Shown: piece by piece, positions 1,331 to 7,882 of the stretch | Layout of the letters: every line of letters starts with the position of its first letter | Position numbering within the stretch: position 1 is the first letter of the stretch | Virus record (IMG/VR): IMGVR_UViG_2513237219_000003 | Strand: one strand, 5' to 3' | Length of the DNA: 20,401 bases | Source: a virus | Lineage: Duplodnaviria > Heunggongvirae > Uroviricota > Caudoviricetes | Translations under genes and position numbers: made by a program | The notes under the pieces: model-generated | Databases searched by the model: none | Told to the model about the DNA's origin: nothing | What the model saw: the letters and a program-made list of their open reading frames with translations, nothing else

Positions 1331-1420
1331 GCTTTTTTATACTAAGTTGGCATTATAAAAAAGCATTGCTTATCAATTTGTTGCAACGAACAGGTCACTA
1401 TCAGTCAAAATAAAATCATT
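1331..1420. other. Prophage attL: 15-bp lambda att core (1331..1345) followed by the P' arm with Int arm-type sites and IHF site
   Basis: Exact core GCTTTTTTATACTAA; downstream GTTGGCATTATAAAAAAGCATTGCTTATCAATTTGTTGCAACGAACAGGTCACTATCAGTCAAAATAAAATCATTATTTG matches the lambda P' arm as recalled; host sequence to the left, int to the right. Confidence 0.85.
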
Positions 1421-2489
1421 ATTTGATTTCAATTTTGTCCCACTCCCTGCCTCTGTCATCACGATACTGTGATGCCATGGTGTCCGACTTATGCCCGAGA
1501 AGATGTTGAGCAAATTTATCGCTTATCTGCTTCTCATAGAGTCTTGCAGACAAACTGCGCAACTCGTGAAAGGTTGGCGGATCCCCTTCGAAGGAGAGAC
1601 CTGATGCTTTTCGTGCGCGCATAAAATACCTTGATACTGTGCCGGATGAAAGCGGTTCACGACGAGTAGATGCAATTATGGTTTCTCCGCCAAGAATCTT
1701 TTTGCATTTATCAAGTGTTTCCTTCATTGATATCCCGAGAGCATCAACATGCAATGTTGTTGGGATGGCAATTTTTACGCCTGTTTTGCTTTGCTCGACA
1801 TAAAGATATCCATCTACGATATCAGACCACTTCATTTCGCATAAATCACCAACTCGCTGCCCGGTAACAACAGCCAGTTCCATTGCAAGTCTAAGCCAAC
1901 ATGGTGATGATTCTGCTGCTTGATAAATTTTCAGGTATTCGTCAGCCGTAAGTCTTGATCTCCTTACCTCTGATTTTGCAGCGCGAGTGGCTGCGACCGG
2001 GTTTGTTGTTATATGGCCTTCAGCCATAGCCTCTCGGAATGCATCGCTCAGTGTTGATCTGATTAACTTGGCTGATGCCGCCTTTCCCTCGTCTATGTAT
2101 CCATTGAGCATTGCCGCAATTTCTTTTGTGGTGATGTCTTCAAGTGGAGCATCAGGCAGACCCCTCCTTATTGCTTTAATTTTGCTCATGTAATTTATGA
2201 GTGTCTTCTGCTTGATTCCTCTGCTGGCCAGGATTTTTTCGTAGCGATCAAGCCATGAATGTAACGTAACGGAATTATCACTGTTGATTCTCGCTGTCAG
2301 AGGCTTGTGTTTGTGTCCTGAAAATAACTCAATGTTGGCCTGTATAGCTTCAGTGATTGCGATTCGCCTGTCTCGGCCTAATCCAAACTCTTTACCCGTC
2401 CTTGGGTCCCTGTAGCAGTAATATCCATTGTTTCTTATATAAAGGTTAGGGGGTAAATCCCGGCGCTCATGACTTCGCCTTCTTCCCAT
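1419..2489 (-). CDS. int: Lambda-type integrase (tyrosine recombinase), 356 aa
   Basis: Translation matches lambda Int along its full length and has the same size; sits next to the P' arm and overlaps xis as in lambda. Confidence 0.95.
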   Translation of the reverse strand: MGRRRSHERRDLPPNLYIRNNGYYCYRDPRTGKEFGLGRDRRIAITEAIQANIELFSGHKHKPLTARINSDNSVTLHSWLDRYEKILASRGIKQKTLINYMSKIKAIRRGLPDAPLEDITTKEIAAMLNGYIDEGKAASAKLIRSTLSDAFREAMAEGHITTNPVAATRAAKSEVRRSRLTADEYLKIYQAAESSPCWLRLAMELAVVTGQRVGDLCEMKWSDIVDGYLYVEQSKTGVKIAIPTTLHVDALGISMKETLDKCKKILGGETIIASTRREPLSSGTVSRYFMRARKASGLSFEGDPPTFHELRSLSARLYEKQISDKFAQHLLGHKSDTMASQYRDDRGREWDKIEIK

Positions 2490-2685
2490 TTCTGATCCTC
2501 TTCAAAAGGCTACCTGTTACTGGTCGATTTAAGTCAACCTTTACCGCTGATTCGTGGAACAGATATTCTCTTCCATCCTTAACCGGAGGAGGGAATATCC
2601 TGCATTCGCGCACCCATCGACGAACTGTTTCAAGGCTTCTTGGGCGTCGCTGGCGAGCGTTCCACTCCTGAAGTGTCAAGTACAT
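2467..2685 (-). CDS. xis: Lambda-type excisionase, 72 aa
   Basis: Translation MYLTLQEWNARQRRPRSLETVRRW... matches lambda Xis; 3' end overlaps the int start. Confidence 0.95.
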   Translation of the reverse strand: MYLTLQEWNARQRRPRSLETVRRWVRECRIFPPPVKDGREYLFHESAVKVDLNRPVTGSLLKRIRNGKKAKS

Positions 2686-2712
2686 CGCAAAGTCTCCGCA
2701 ATTACACGCAAG

Positions 2713-2732
2713 AAAAAACCGCCATCAGGCGG
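2713..2732 (-). terminator. Intrinsic-terminator-like hairpin between orf55 and xis (minus-strand sense)
   Basis: GC-rich 5-bp stem CCGCC/GGCGG with 4-nt loop, followed on the minus strand by a six-U tract; the loop contains the orf55 stop codon. Confidence 0.45.
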
Positions 2733-2892
2733 CTTGGTGTTCTTTCAGTTCTTCAATTCGAATATTGGTTATGTCTGCATGTGCTATCTGCGCCCATATC
2801 ATCCAGTGGTCATAGCAGTCATTGATGTTCTCTGCTTCGATAACTCTGTTGAATGGTTCTCCATTCCATTCACCTGTGACTCGGAAGTGCAT
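2725..2892 (-). CDS. Small hypothetical protein (55 aa) in the position of the lambda ORF between xis and ea8.5
   Basis: ATG with GGAG Shine-Dalgarno 8 nt upstream; translation MHFRVTGEWNGEPFNRVIEAENINDCYDHWMIWAQIAHADITNIRIEELKEHQAA; not in the ORF track because it is under 60 aa. Identity with the lambda ORF is from memory. Confidence 0.5.
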   Translation of the reverse strand: MHFRVTGEWNGEPFNRVIEAENINDCYDHWMIWAQIAHADITNIRIEELKEHQAA

Positions 2893-2902
2893 TTATCATC
2901 TC

Positions 2903-2930
2903 CATAAAACAAAACTCGCCGTAGCGAGTT
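2903..2930 (-). terminator. Intrinsic-terminator-like hairpin downstream of the 142-aa gene and IS1-A (minus-strand sense)
   Basis: 7-bp stem AACTCGC/GCGAGTT with 4-nt loop, followed on the minus strand by a U-rich tract (TTTGTTTTAT). Confidence 0.45.
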
Positions 2931-3031
2931 CAGATATAATTTCCACCAAAGGCAGTAGTTGCTGATGCTAAGAATTGGTGATGCTGCCAACTTACTGATT
3001 TAGTGTATGATGGTGTTTTTGAGGTGCTCCA

Positions 3032-3307
3032 GTGGCTTCTGTTTCTATCAGCTGTCCCTCCTGTTCAGCTACTGACGGGGTGGTGCGTAACGGCAAAAGC
3101 ACTGCCGGACATCAGCGCTATCTCTGCTCTCACTGCCGTAAAACATGGCAACTGCAGTTCACTTACACCGCTTCTCAACCCGGTACGCACCAGAAAATCA
3201 TTGATATGGCCATGAATGGCGTTGGATGCCGGGCAACCGCCCGCATTATGGGCGTTGGCCTCAACACGATTTTCCGCCATTTAAAAAACTCAGGCCGCAG
3301 TCGGTAA
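3032..3307 (+). CDS. insA: IS1 InsA (copy A), 91 aa
   Basis: Translation matches IS1 InsA; the A6C slippery motif TTAAAAAAC for the InsAB' -1 frameshift lies at about 3281..3289. Confidence 0.9.
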
Positions 3308-3729
3308 CCTCGCGCATACAGCCGGGCAGTGACGTCATCGTCTGCGCGGAAATGGACGAACAGTGGGGATACGTCGGGGCTAAATCGCGCCAGCGCTGGC
3401 TGTTTTACGCGTATGACAGGCTCCGGAAGACGGTTGTTGCGCACGTATTCGGTGAACGCACTATGGCGACGCTGGGGCGTCTTATGAGCCTGCTGTCACC
3501 CTTTGACGTGGTGATATGGATGACGGATGGCTGGCCGCTGTATGAATCCCGCCTGAAGGGAAAGCTGCACGTAATCAGCAAGCGATATACGCAGCGAATT
3601 GAGCGGCATAACCTGAATCTGAGGCAGCACCTGGCACGGCTGGGACGGAAGTCGCTGTCGTTCTCAAAATCGGTGGAGCTGCATGACAAAGTCATCGGGC
3701 ATTATCTGAACATAAAACACTATCAATAA
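3226..3729 (+). CDS. insB: IS1 InsB frame (copy A); expressed as an InsAB' fusion by -1 frameshifting
   Basis: Translation matches the IS1 InsB frame; overlaps insA in the -1 frame. Confidence 0.9.
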
Positions 3730-3751
3730 GTTGGGAGTCATTACCTAAGAA

Positions 3752-4180
3752 TTATTCAATATCTATTCCTGTAATATCTTTTATCTTTTTCCTTGCAAAG
3801 CCTTTTGCTAGTGATTTTGAAACACTTATTAGTGTACTAATTCCCTCATCCTTAAAGTTTGTTTTTATAGTTTGCCAGACCTCCTTTTGACGCAAGTCAG
3901 CAATAAAATCATGCCCTCTTGCTGTCAACCTCAGTGGTACTTCGATCCAACTATATCCAACACCTTCCCCTAACTCGTTGGACATTATATGACCGAACCC
4001 AGGTTTTCCATCAACCCTGACTATTAATTCGTAGTCGCATAATAATCGCATATGGAAAATAAAATTTTGGTCATATCTATTAAAGCCATTATCCTCTAGT
4101 TCACTAAGCATCGTGTCAGGGCCATGAGTTTTTTCGAATGCGATAAGTAGATCTTTTAGATATTGCTGGTCTAATTTCAT
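3752..4180 (-). CDS. Hypothetical 142-aa protein with a winged-helix-like N-terminus (DUF2513-like by motif recall); accessory gene in the ea8.5/ea22 position
   Basis: Intact ORF with GGAGG Shine-Dalgarno 6 nt upstream; motif LTARGHDFIADLRQKEVWQTIK resembles the conserved GH-F...R...VW core recalled for DUF2513 proteins; AT-rich codon usage; no lambda counterpart recognised. Confidence 0.6.
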   Translation of the reverse strand: MKLDQQYLKDLLIAFEKTHGPDTMLSELEDNGFNRYDQNFIFHMRLLCDYELIVRVDGKPGFGHIMSNELGEGVGYSWIEVPLRLTARGHDFIADLRQKEVWQTIKTNFKDEGISTLISVSKSLAKGFARKKIKDITGIDIE

Positions 4181-4208
4181 TGCCGCCTCCGTGACATGTC
4201 ACAGAGAT

Positions 4209-4547
4209 TTATATCATTAATTTTGTTTCGTGCCAGCCTTTGGTCACCCAGCATTGTGAGTCACCATTACACGGGCATGAATTAACAGGAACTCTCTCGC
4301 CGCACTTACCGCAACGTTTTCTGCTGATCGATTTTATACGCCAGCGCACACGTGCATCATCCTGGCGGCTCAGTAACGCGATGTACTCACCAAACTCGTA
4401 AGGCGCATGCCTGAAGCGGCGCGTGGCTCAGTTACGATCCAGCATTTCAATTTCCTGAGCATCAAGTACAAGCTCCAGCTTACGCATACCGGATGATGCT
4501 TGCTTGGCTCTCTGATCGACTTTGCGCTCTGCTGATGATTTAGCCAT
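4209..4547 (-). pseudogene. 112-codon zinc-finger-like ORF interrupted by a single in-frame TGA at codon 40 (4428..4430); possibly Ea8.5-like
   Basis: Manual translation MAKSSAERKVDQRAKQASSGMRKLELVLDAQEIEMLDRN-stop-ATRRFRHAPYEFGEYIALLSRQDDARVRWRIKSISRKRCGKCGERVPVNSCPCNGDSQCWVTKGWHETKLMI; CxxC...CxC motif; ends 28 nt upstream of the 142-aa gene start. Confidence 0.4.
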
Positions 4548-4743
4548 TCTGCTTTTCCTGCATTAGGAGAAAGACAATCATGGCGGCGCGGATACTTCCG
4601 GTATCTTTTTACTCGATATTACCCTTCAATGGCACATACAAGAAGAGAGCCATCAACAGGAGTGAGTGAGGAATCGACAACCAGCAACGCTTAATTATCT
4701 ATAGTGTCGTATTTGCTTCATAAAATATGGCGAATAACACAAA

Positions 4744-4775
4744 GCCCGCAGCAGCTCATTGTGCGGGCTTTTCTT
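4744..4775. terminator. Terminator-like hairpin (GCCCGCA / TGCGGGC stem) with flanking T and A tracts; strand ambiguous
   Basis: Perfect 7-bp GC-rich stem with 11-nt loop followed by TTTTCTT on the plus strand and preceded by AAA; lies between the truncated gene at 4841..5298 and the zinc-finger-like ORF. Confidence 0.45.
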
Positions 4776-4840
4776 ATACATACTTCCTAGAGATAATTCT
4801 ATGGAGGCATTAAATTAATACTGTCATTGGTAATATCATA

Positions 4841-5298
4841 TTATCTAAAAGTCTTTCCACTTTTAACGTCTAGGTATATTCTGTTCGACAACGTCATTCC
4901 TCCGCAATATGTGAAATAGATGTTTTTCCCCTTATTGCTTGATGCCATCCACCCTCCGATTTCCTTAAAGTCGCTTTCCGTGCAGACCCCTTCGTTTATT
5001 AACTTCCTAGCTGCCGAAGAAAACTCTTTTTTGTATATACGGTAGTCATCAGATCCTTTGATTAAAGTATCATCTCCGCTCGCATTTTCAGCAGGATCTG
5101 ATGGCCTTTCACTGCTAAGATCACTAAGTTTAACCCATTCTGAAAACTTGCCATTGACGATTCCGTTTTTTCTTGTGCAGGATTTATTACCTTCTTTAAT
5201 ATATTCGCTTTCCCCTCCCACACATGAGGCTGAATATGGCTCAGTTATACGAACCCATTCACCTTTTTTTTCTAGAAAATCTACGCCTTCCCTGAAAA
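4841..5298 (-). pseudogene. C-terminal fragment of an unknown protein; N-terminus removed at the IS1-B boundary
   Basis: Reading frame stays open from 5221 up to the IS1-B end at 5298 (…FREGVDFLEKKGEWVRITEPYSASCVGGESEY…) with no start codon before the IS; lysine-rich and AT-rich; no recognised family. Confidence 0.5.
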
Positions 5299-5313
5299 GG
5301 TAATGACTCTAAC

Positions 5314-5817
5314 TTATTGATAGTGTTTTATGTTCAGATAATGCCCGATGACTTTGTCATGCAGCTCCACCGATTTTGAGAACGACAGCGACTTCCGTCC
5401 CAGCCGTGCCAGGTGCTGCCTCAGATTCAGGTTATGCCGCTCAATTCGCTGCGTATATCGCTTGCTGATTACGTGCAGCTTTCCCTTCAGGCGGGATTCA
5501 TACAGCGGCCAGCCATCCGTCATCCATATCACCACGTCAAAGGGTGACAGCAGGCTCATAAGACGCCCCAGCGTCGCCATAGTGCGTTCACCGAATACGT
5601 GCGCAACAACCGTCTTCCGGAGCCTGTCATACGCGTAAAACAGCCAGCGCTGGCGCGATTTAGCCCCGACATAGCCCCACTGTTCGTCCATTTCCGCGCA
5701 GACGATGACGTCACTGCCCGGCTGTATGCGCGAGGTTACCGACTGCGGCCTGAGTTTTTTAAGTGACGTAAAATCGTGTTGAGGCCAACGCCCATAATGC
5801 GGGCTGTTGCCCGGCAT
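5314..5817 (-). CDS. insB: IS1 InsB frame (copy B)
   Basis: Translation matches IS1 InsB. Confidence 0.9.
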
Positions 5818-6011
5818 CCAACGCCATTCATGGCCATATCAATGATTTTCTGGTGCGTACCGGGTTGAGAAGCGGTGTAAGTGAACTGCAGTTGCCATGT
5901 TTTACGGCAGTGAGAGCAGAGATAGCGCTGATGTCCGGCGGTGCTTTTGCCGTTACGCACCACCCCGTCAGTAGCTGAACAGGAGGGACAGCTGATAGAA
6001 ACAGAAGCCAC
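5736..6011 (-). CDS. insA: IS1 InsA (copy B)
   Basis: Translation matches IS1 InsA. Confidence 0.9.
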
Positions 6012-6066
6012 TGGAGCACCTCAAAAACACCATCATACACTAAATCAGTAAGTTGGCAGCATCACC

Positions 6067-6283
6067 CCATCAGCGTTACCGTTTCGCGGTGCTTCTTCAG
6101 TACGCTACGGCAAATGTCATCGACGTTTTTATCCGGAAACTGCTGTCTGGCTTTTTTGATTTCAGAATTAGCCTGACGGGCAATGCTGCGAAGGGCGTTT
6201 TCCTGCTGAGGTGTCACTGAACAAGCCCCATGTCGGCAAGCATAAGCACACAGAATATGAAGCCCGCTGCCAGAAAAATGCAT
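6067..6283 (-). pseudogene. Lambda orf61-region ORF, 3'-truncated by IS1 copy B
   Basis: Frame ...VTPQQENALRSIARQANSEIKKARQQFPDKNVDDICRSVLKKHRETVTLMG runs straight into the IS1 end, with its stop supplied by IS1 sequence; lies in the orf61 position upstream of orf63. True start uncertain. Confidence 0.4.
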
Positions 6284-6293
6284 TCAGTGGTTG

Positions 6294-6485
6294 TCATACC
6301 TGGTCTCTCTCATCTGCTTCTGCTTTCGCCACCATCATTTCCAGTTTTTGTGAAAGGGATGTGGCTAACGTATGAAATTCTTCGTCTGTTTCTACTGGTA
6401 TTGGCACAAACCTGATTCCAATTTGAGCAAGGCTATGTGCCATCTCGATACTCGTTCTTAACTCAACAGGAGATGCTTTGTGCAT
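6294..6485 (-). CDS. Lambda orf63-like protein, 63 aa
   Basis: Translation and length match lambda orf63 as recalled; 28-nt overlap with orf60a as in lambda. Confidence 0.75.
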   Translation of the reverse strand: MHKASPVELRTSIEMAHSLAQIGIRFVPIPVETDEEFHTLATSLSQKLEMMVAKAEADERDQV

Positions 6486-6640: not shown

Positions 6641-7317
6641 CGCCATTGCTCCCCAAATACAAAACCAATTTCAGCCAGTGCCTCGTCCATTTTTTCGATG
6701 AACACCGGCACCATCTCGTCAAAACTCGCCATGTACTTTTCATCCCGCTCAACCACGACATAATGCAGTCCTTCACGCTTCATACGCGGGTCATAGTTGG
6801 CAAAGTACCAGGCATCTTTTCGTGTCACCCACATGCTGTACTGCACCTGGGCCATGTAAGCCGACTTTATGGCCTCGAAACCACCGAGCCGGAACTTCAT
6901 GAAATCCCGGGAGGTAAACGGGCATTTCAGCTCAAGGCCATTGCCGTCACTGCATAAACCATCGGGAGAGCAGGCGGTGCGCATACTTTCGTCGCGATAG
7001 ATGATCGGGGATTCAGTAACATTCACGCCGGAAGTGAATTCAAACAGGGTTCTGGCGTCGTTCTCGTACTGTTTTCCCCATGCCAGCGCCTTAGCATTAA
7101 CTTCCGGAGCCACACCGGTGCAAACCTCAGCCAGCAGGGTGTGGAAGTAGGACATTTTCATGTCAGGCCACTTCTTTCCTGAGCGGGGCTTGGCTATCAC
7201 GTTGTGAACTTCTGAAGCGGTGATGACGCCGAGCCGTAATTTGTGCCATGCATCATCCCCCTGTTCGACAGCTCTCACGTCGATCCCGGTACGCTGCAGG
7301 ATAATGTCCGGTGTCAT
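6637..7317 (-). CDS. exo: Lambda exonuclease (Red-alpha), 226 aa
   Basis: Full-length translation matches lambda Exo; start overlaps the bet 3' end as in lambda. Confidence 0.95.
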
Positions 7318-7760
7318 GCTGCCACCTTCTGCTCAGTGGCTTTCTGTTTCAGGAATCCAAGAGCTTTCACTGCTTCGGCCTGTGTCAGTTCTGACGATGC
7401 GCGAATGTCGCGGCGAAATATCTGGGAACAGAGCGGCAATAAGTCGTCATCCCATGTTTTGTCCAGGGCAATCAGCAGAGTGTTAATCTCCTGCATGGTT
7501 TCATCGTTAACCGGAGTAATGTCGCGTTCCGGCTGACGTTCTGCGGTGTATGCGGTATTTTCGACAATGCGCTCGGCTTCATCCTTGTCATAGATACCAG
7601 CAAATCCGAAGGCCAGACGGGCACACTGAATCATGGCTTTATGCCGTAACATCCGTTTGGGATGCGACTGCCACGGCCCCGTAATTTCTCTGCCTTCGCG
7701 GGTTTTGAATGGTTCGCGGCGGCATTCATCCATCCACTCGGTAACGCAGATCGGATGATT
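7314..7760 (-). pseudogene. bet: bet (Red-beta) 3' fragment; 5' part deleted, junction at about 7760/7761
   Basis: Translation matches the C-terminal part of lambda Bet (…NHPICVTEWMDECRREPFKTREGREI… to the end); upstream frame hits a stop and unrelated sequence beyond 7760. Confidence 0.9.
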
Positions 7761-7795
7761 ACCGGTTCGCTACCAGGGAAGAACGGGAAGGAAAG

Positions 7796-7882
7796 GTGAG
7801 CACGAATCTGATTTTCAAGGAGTGTCGCCAGAGTGCCGCGATGAAGCGGGTGTTGGCATTTTATCGCGGCAATTTTCAATAG
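7796..7882 (+). CDS. Hypothetical 28-aa ORF just past the bet deletion junction
   Basis: GTG start preceded by GGAAGGAAAG; translation VSTNLIFKECRQSAAMKRVLAFYRGNFQ; may correspond to a small DLP12-type ORF upstream of ybcN, but that could not be confirmed. Confidence 0.2.
   Translation: MSTNLIFKECRQSAAMKRVLAFYRGNFQ

Follow-up and report, generated by a model that had tools for sequence, protein, structure and literature searches.

In phage lambda the genes ea8.5 and orf55 lie between ea22 and xis (PMC8614690), in an exo-xis region whose genes reportedly belong to the earliest transcribed (PMC10834534, PMC4195576). An effect of these genes on the lysis-lysogeny decision has also been reported (PMC10834534, PMC4195576, PMC7093339, PMC8614690), and a wHTH (winged helix-turn-helix) protein, Gp05, has been modelled in Stx phage phi24B's exo-xis region (PMC8614690). 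The DNA considered here, a stretch of 20,401 nucleotides from a tailed virus of the Caudoviricetes (IMG/VR record IMGVR_UViG_2513237219_000003; hereafter the window), carries a gene of the DUF2513 family in this same slot. Like the lambda exo-xis genes, it is small and non-essential and reads in the direction of the leftward early arm. It encodes a protein with a predicted MarR-like winged-helix fold and is preceded by a leader that has been conserved between lineages. The best explanation for these properties, to which we give about an even chance, is that the gene specifies an early-made, putative homodimeric DNA-binding regulator that acts in phage-host conflict and is possibly autoregulated.

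The gene and its leader comprise the following features.

3752..4180, minus strand: DUF2513-family gene with ATG start, 142 residues and TAA stop at 3752-3754; predicted MarR-like winged helix
4186..4190, minus strand: Shine-Dalgarno sequence GGAGG, with a 5-nt spacer to the ATG, read from the sequence
4191..4202, no strand assigned: perfect 12-bp palindrome GTGACATGTCAC, adjoining the Shine-Dalgarno sequence; candidate protein-binding site
4208..4236, minus strand: hypothetical promoter-like element, CTGGCA (4236-4231), 17 nt, TATAAA (4213-4208), with a TG extended -10 (4216-4215)

An earlier examination of the letters alone (the original prediction) had described an intact open reading frame (ORF) with a strong Shine-Dalgarno sequence. 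The frame occupies exactly 3752-4180, but on the minus strand, where the sequence before the start reads GTGACATGTCAC-GGAGG-CGGCA-ATG. Its translation agrees with the peptides cited at the time and is identical to RefSeq WP_000762730.1, already named 'DUF2513 domain-containing protein'; the family identity is thus known from database annotation. The profile match on which the proposed DUF2513 membership had been staked extends over the entire domain: Pfam DUF2513 (PF10711) scores 42.9 bits against a cut-off of 29.6 (E=6.8e-11), with residues 2-115 on profile positions 1-100 of 100, and PHROG 585 is matched at E=2.3e-34. With the motifs FxFH and PLRLTxxGHxF both kept, the protein is a plain member of these families. 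PF10711 is carried by 111 of 113 close homologues, which are spread over the Enterobacterales and bear the DUF2513 name throughout, and an alignment of 75 sequences shows little or no variation at residues R84, T86, G89, H43 and D49. An exhaustive search returned 347 cluster representatives at E<=1e-3, mostly stand-alone proteins of about 135 residues.

The ORF is a genuine DUF2513 gene and not a chance reading frame, because 142 codons stay open in DNA of 36% guanine plus cytosine (GC) and because, between genera, the proportion of non-synonymous differences (pN, 0.11-0.28) is far below the saturated synonymous value (pS, 0.65-0.90). Judged by these substitution patterns, the gene has been under long-term purifying selection. 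NCBIfam and PADLOC searches with the protein gave no match (for PADLOC 2.0, none at E<=1), sequence searches of the PDB with the single sequence and with a profile found no relative, and a literature search, limited to one library, found no relevant paper on the DUF2513 (PF10711) family. A Pfam match to PF24409, wHTH-PRTase_assc, at E=0.1 was taken as noise.

The protein was modelled with AlphaFold2 from a 44-sequence alignment, with a predicted local distance difference test (pLDDT) score of 93.2 and a predicted template modelling (pTM) score of 0.84. In the model an N-terminal helix (residues 5-16) is followed by a helix-turn-helix (25-30 and 38-49), by an enlarged wing of four strands (53-55, 64-69, 73-78 and 83-85) that ends in the canonical 'RLTxxG' strand, and by C-terminal helices at 87-97, 99-108 and 114-137. 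The model therefore has the arrangement by which the fold of MarR-type regulators is defined, a wHTH flanked by N- and C-terminal helices, and the top Foldseek matches are the MarR-family proteins PecS and MftR, over 120-130 columns. These results support a predicted winged helix, as the original prediction had suspected, with MarR-like topology, in a protein that is not a sequence member of those families: the Pfam models MarR, MarR_2, PadR and HxlR gave no match at E<=1. From MarR, HxlR and PadR regulators the window protein also differs in its four-strand wing, with a variable insert at about residues 58-80, and in its acidic wHTH with a hydrophobic recognition helix.

The conserved leader upstream of the gene is new in this analysis. 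About 60 nt are kept in every lineage with at least 64% protein identity, even where the remainder of the gene that lies upstream in the window, a member of PHROG 536, is gone, and the consensus is ...GGCTGGCA-(17 nt)-TG.TATAAA-(5-6 nt)-GTGACATGTCAC-GGAGG-(5 nt)-ATG. The -35/-10-like blocks, the palindrome and the Shine-Dalgarno sequence are kept in seven lineages, four of them without the upstream gene, and the palindrome is conserved between lineages despite saturation at synonymous sites. Within the window it is present in one copy, against 0.03 expected by chance. The promoter-like element, which scores 9/12 with its extended -10, is the best minus-strand site in the 650 nt from 4181 to 4830. 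It overlaps the last codons and stop of the upstream pseudogene, with the -10 TATAAA on the stop codon itself, and the predicted transcription start falls inside the palindrome (4191-4202). The element has the form of a sigma-70 promoter, and the leader is read as the gene's own putative promoter mainly because it is kept by a lone copy in Pectobacterium, where the flanking genes are on the opposite strand and the nearest upstream gene is 340 nt off.

In the E. coli version only, the palindrome extends to a 9-bp RNA hairpin, UCUCUGUGA-CAUG-UCACGGAGG (4186-4207, minus strand; -10.8 kcal/mol), which starts a single nucleotide beyond the stop codon of the upstream gene and takes up the whole Shine-Dalgarno sequence in its pairing. 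Such a hairpin could couple translation of DUF2513 to that of the partner gene. The extension that covers the Shine-Dalgarno sequence is not conserved in lineages outside E. coli, and the RNA structure of the whole leader is not unusual (z = -0.95), the local hairpin alone standing out. SOS control by way of a umuD-like fragment farther upstream was considered and rejected, as no CTG-N10-CAG box was found in 4181-4830. A second enterobacterial DUF2513 subfamily, with 47-51% identity, has a conserved leader of its own, with an inverted repeat GGCATTCACTGAGTGCC and a GATAAT box; this leader, about 120 nt before the start at 5001 in six loci (L008, L010, L013, L014, L016 and L017), also contains GCATTACAG.

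In its placement the gene resembles the cargo of the exo-xis region, for it lies between exo and xis, is co-oriented with the region and adjoins orf55. The ea8.5/ea22 position proposed for it was apt: this is the ea8.5-type slot beside orf55-xis-int of a lambdoid prophage, and the intact lambda-like phage Chlobot (N...exo...xis-int arm) has the gene in the same arm. Family searches matched no Ea8.5- or Ea22-type family to the DUF2513 protein, and, in distinction to the lambda genes, DUF2513 shares the slot with several other genes as alternative cargo, and in other prophages it is found in quite different slots. The Citrobacter and Serratia copies occupy the nin region, a Serratia liquefaciens copy follows ParB-like and methylase genes close to the integrase end, and the Cronobacter copy stands at the end of the early operon before terS, the small terminase gene. 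The expectation that the family recurs in phage accessory positions is thereby borne out. In these phage slots the gene reads in the same direction as the early-region genes around it, the lone Pectobacterium copy excepted. When 319 ORFs flanking the gene in 65 genome loci were compared all against all by BLAST, no recurrent partner emerged, and a Pfam scan of 112 neighbours gave a mixture of phage, toxin-antitoxin, restriction-modification and housekeeping families.

The gene is AT-rich, non-essential mobile cargo of temperate enterobacterial phages. At 36%, its GC content is below that of the window (47%) and of the upstream PHROG-536 gene (50%). Of 5426 complete E. coli genomes 183 have the gene, in 168 cases with at least 80% of its length; truncated copies are present in some genomes. 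Among readily available systems, E. coli ATCC 8739 carries an identical gene, and the copy in phage Chlobot is 94% identical. Phage morons offer a second comparison, since DUF2513 shares with them a deviant base composition (36% vs 47-50% GC), an upstream promoter-like leader, a downstream terminator and presence/absence polymorphism, TL-2011b being without the gene where Cronobacter prophages have it. Unlike a moron, it is co-oriented with and embedded in early operons and is not a lysogeny-expressed unit, and its promoter is putative.

Links to phage-host conflict come from distant members of the family. Among the 150 DUF2513 representatives listed, nine are longer than 170 residues, and five of these nine carry defence-type modules at the C terminus. 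P0154 joins DUF2513 to a PF10137 TIR domain of the CAP12/Pycsar type and also matches PDC-S35 and PycTIR, P0225 joins it to a PDC-S60-like domain (E=2e-28), and P0138, P0255 and P0231 have AbiTi-like tails. These fusion proteins, to which loci L087-L089 belong, come from short metagenomic contigs or distant lineages, and a profile search intended to widen the census added essentially nothing to them. At the P0225 locus there are, besides the fusion, a second DUF2513 gene that stands alone and an HTH_3/Peptidase_M78 pair. In Pectobacterium (L094 288-4426) the lone DUF2513 gene is divergent from a candidate defence system of two genes, PDC-M65A/B (E=6e-45 and 2e-119). For the defence, anti-defence or host-takeover role raised in the original prediction, the fusions and this adjacency are circumstantial links only. 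Compared with TIR and AbiTi defence proteins (PycTIR/CAP12, PDC-S35, PDC-S60, AbiTi), whose modules are borne C-terminally by homologues with 28-43% identity over the DUF2513 domain, the window protein is stand-alone, has three C-terminal helices in place of the effector and has no PADLOC match. In distant loci the tightly linked downstream genes had almost no family matches and no recognisable effector domains, for which reason an operon of sensor plus recognisable effector could not be shown; a TIR-like match in a 305-residue Serratia neighbour (E=1e-4) was not confirmed by Pfam and was taken as noise.

The gene immediately upstream and the terminator downstream bear on the proposal, made in the original prediction, that DUF2513 belongs to a discrete two-gene cassette.

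4209..4547, minus strand: pseudogene of a 112-residue Zn-ribbon-type protein (PHROG 536, 'transcriptional regulator'), with an in-frame TGA at 4428-4430, codon 40
2902..2931, minus strand: terminator-like hairpin GAACTCGCTACGGCGAGTT (hairpin 2912-2931) followed by a TTTGTTTT tract, from a terminator scan and an RNA fold of the ancestral sequence

The zinc-finger-like ORF to which DUF2513 had been thought translationally linked is the tail of a nonsense-mutated gene. The ORFs at 4209-4349 (46 residues) and 4428-4547 (39 residues) match the C- and N-terminal parts of PHROG 536, RefSeq notes the pseudogene as 'internal stop', and codon 40 is TGT (Cys) in phage Chlobot and in E. coli plasmid NZ_CP081768.1, where the gene is intact. 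Nor do the two frames overlap: 28 nt separate the PHROG-536 stop from the DUF2513 ATG, and DUF2513 has its own Shine-Dalgarno sequence. The link as proposed is thus not supported. The terminator-like hairpin, likewise predicted, is real, and such a hairpin comes after the DUF2513 gene in E. coli and in Cronobacter, the two lineages checked. In the IS1-free ancestor it is some 40 nt from the DUF2513 stop codon, but in the window about 770 bp away from the gene, owing to IS1.

The pair does recur, as PHROG-536, a 27-28-nt spacer and DUF2513, in E. coli lambdoid prophages and Chlobot, in Cronobacter and in Yersinia, at different genome positions (immediately before terS in Cronobacter, beside DUF1367 in Yersinia) and with partner proteins 47-62% identical. 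To this extent the cassette is upheld, but each gene also occurs alone, and the two differ in GC content. DUF2513 is without its partner, reduced to a 3' remnant of about 35 nt, in Enterobacter, Citrobacter, Pectobacterium and Serratia liquefaciens, and in phages of the phiV10/TL-2011b type, where DUF2513 is absent, a terminator and terS come directly behind the PHROG-536 gene. Co-occurrence is therefore not consistent, the genes being adjacent in three lineages and DUF2513 alone in four. The notion of variable cargo downstream of PHROG-536 in phiV10/TL-2011b was rejected, as the variable genes there (DUF2591/NinX and others) are upstream and terS comes directly after. In Uetakevirus-type phages the PHROG-536 gene is the last before the terminator and terS, which makes it a possible late-gene regulator. 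The simplest history would be insertion of an AT-rich DUF2513 unit after the PHROG-536 gene in some ancestor, with later movement to other sites, and the pairing would most simply reflect shared ancestry, not obligate function.

The surrounding element is a defective lambdoid prophage at att-lambda, with the layout ybhC-int-xis-orf55-[IS1]-DUF2513 and then a DLP12-like right arm.

1419-2489, minus strand: int
2467-2685, minus strand: xis
2725..2892, minus strand: orf55 homologue, last gene of the lambda exo-xis region, with W9, N43, R45 and E47 present
2977..3745, plus strand: IS1 copy 1 (insA/insB), 6 nt beyond the DUF2513 stop codon
4622..4687, minus strand: remaining piece of a umuD/humD-like gene, listed in RefSeq as 'DNA repair protein, incomplete'
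4841..5298, minus strand: 3' part of a 204-residue gene (PHROG 8310; profile positions 79-204 of 204), cut by IS1 copy 2
5299..6066, minus strand: IS1 copy 2 (insA/insB), reading towards the DUF2513 gene, with an adjacent deletion

The assertion that DUF2513 lies directly upstream of orf55-xis was right. Transcription on the minus strand would pass from DUF2513 through a 55-residue ORF, xis and int to chromosomal ybhC, and the four residues kept in the 55-residue product are those discussed for lambda Orf55 (PMC8614690). IS1 had been placed exactly at the stop codon without disruption of the gene, which is accurate to within 6 nt. The target duplication TAAGAATT is at 2969-2976 and 3746-3753 (9 bp if the terminal C is counted); the element ends 6 nt after the stop codon and leaves the ORF untouched, because the duplication on the gene side overlaps just 2 nt of the stop codon. 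The undisturbed sequence can be read in an E. coli locus (L003) that lacks IS1 copy 1 and is identical in other respects. At their ends the two copies of IS1 are not alike (copy 1, ...gttgggagtcattacc at 3730-3745; copy 2, ggtaatgactctaactt... at 5299-5325), and copy 1 is one base longer than its counterpart in strain NCTC9040.

Decay has gone further on the other side of the gene. The umuD-like fragment has 87-91% DNA identity to umuD-like genes of phage-plasmids of the D6/P1 type, which marks the exo-xis region in the window as a patchwork of unrelated phage types. Relative to NCTC9040 (L002 6899-7995), 1097 bp have been lost beside IS1 copy 2, at the cost of the 5' portion of the PHROG-8310 gene together with an ea22-like pseudogene and a gene of the TraR/DksA family (orf73-like). 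A recT gene without its N terminus abuts a ren fragment on the opposite strand (about 7314-7882), from which it follows that the immunity and replication region (pL, N, repressor, cro, cII, O, P) has been deleted. No complete genome in the collection had exactly this arrangement over window positions 2400-6400. In another decayed version of the prophage, in E. coli STEC309 (L069 7430-8635), an IS3 adjoins the DUF2513 leader on its upstream side and the prophage is lost from there as far as cII, but int-xis-orf55-DUF2513 is kept. In the window, then, the DUF2513 gene is a stranded survivor in a decayed prophage. As the expected pL promoter is deleted, the partner is nonsense-mutated and IS1 lies on both sides, any expression here would depend on the promoter-like element of the leader or on read-through from IS1.

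If DUF2513 is a regulator of the kind proposed, the protein would be made early after infection or induction, would dimerise like MarR-type proteins into a homodimeric winged-helix DNA-binding regulator, would possibly repress its own leader at the 12-bp palindrome, and in phage-host conflict would most likely modulate genes of the host, of competitor phages or of adjacent cargo. Several observations weigh against it. The winged-helix part is acidic (residues 1-86 have an isoelectric point of 4.8, with 8 K/R vs 14 D/E), the recognition helix (N-F-I-F-H-M-R-L-L) is mostly hydrophobic and within it only H43 is nearly invariant across the wider family, and the protein matches neither a MarR Pfam model nor a PADLOC model. 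A strict promoter scan gave no promoter on the strand of the gene, and between the two E. coli alleles there are 8 non-synonymous and 3 synonymous changes, too small a number to be told from neutral drift. The palindrome also follows the PHROG-536 gene in phages without DUF2513: exact copies number two in TL-2011b (L085 11500-11511 and 32282-32293). Chlobot, which has DUF2513, carries it at L084 17494-17505. The presence of the palindrome in TL-2011b means that it is not a site read solely by the DUF2513 protein, for which reason the idea of a DUF2513-specific operator was dropped, and the palindrome may serve another protein or act at the RNA level. The second TL-2011b copy is directly after the ant gene, and the palindrome looks like a functional site.

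The acidic surface of the winged helix would be accommodated if DUF2513 were a sensor or adaptor module of conflict systems, not a transcription factor, whose effector fusions would trigger abortive infection. The defence-type modules (TIR, PDC-S60-like and AbiTi-like) in five of the nine long representatives, the PDC-M65 genes beside the Pectobacterium copy and the early-operon positions, typical of counter-defence genes, all agree with this account, as do neighbours that include toxin-antitoxin and restriction-modification components, a DNA methylase, DinI and a deoxynucleoside triphosphate pyrophosphohydrolase. It is unlikely nonetheless, since the fusions are rare (five of the 150 representatives) and remote in origin, the window protein has neither a PADLOC match nor a conserved partner gene, and the linked downstream genes of distant loci are without recognisable effector domains. 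The stand-alone phage copy would, on that account and with no better prospects, be an exclusion factor, a decoy or an anti-defence protein that acts by protein or ligand binding. A bolder form, in which DUF2513 is the dedicated sensing or regulatory module of undescribed abortive-infection-type systems and temperate phages carry self-regulated stand-alone copies in early operons, to exclude rivals or as decoys against such systems of the host, is a distinctly unlikely speculation; were it true, the leader, with its promoter-like element and palindrome, would be an autoregulatory switch.

That the gene is an inert relic in this genome, with no meaningful expression and intact merely because it is short and decay is recent, is a doubtful but possible view, and one compatible with the others in that function in intact phages may persist. 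The loss of the immunity region and the truncation of recT against the ren fragment speak for it, together with neighbours that are pseudogenes or fragments, two IS1 copies and the 1.1-kb deletion beside one of them, the AT-richness of the gene, a Shine-Dalgarno sequence sequestered in a stable hairpin, the neutral-like E. coli alleles (8 non-synonymous to 3 synonymous) and the truncated copies of some genomes. Set against these are its survival, to 80% or more, in 168 of the 183 E. coli genomes with the gene, its retention beside xis-int in several independently decayed versions of the prophage, and the intact promoter-like leader. Very unlikely is the model that came with the original prediction, an obligate, co-transcribed and translationally coupled cassette in which DUF2513 and the PHROG-536 protein work together. 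The pair is found with the same 27-28-nt spacer and palindrome in E. coli/Chlobot, Cronobacter and Yersinia, and because the E. coli hairpin that pairs the Shine-Dalgarno sequence (-10.8 kcal/mol) starts 1 nt past the stop codon of the partner, a terminating ribosome could unmask that sequence. Yet in the window, as in identical E. coli loci, an intact DUF2513 ORF accompanies a partner that has become a pseudogene. The partner has been deleted by IS3 in STEC309 and is gone but for the remnant of about 35 nt in Enterobacter, Citrobacter, Pectobacterium and Serratia, and it stands without DUF2513 in phages of the phiV10/TL-2011b type; its GC content is 50% vs 36%, the hairpin extension is not conserved outside E. 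coli, and there is no overlap between the two reading frames.

What results in practice is a clean annotation, in which a catalogued DUF2513 gene is set in a decaying lambdoid prophage shaped by two IS1 copies and its apparent 'zinc-finger partner' is no longer a working gene. Beyond this the value is modest but real: a portable leader with its palindrome, consistent early-operon placement in unrelated backbones, and rare defence-type fusions and adjacency together make the family testable.

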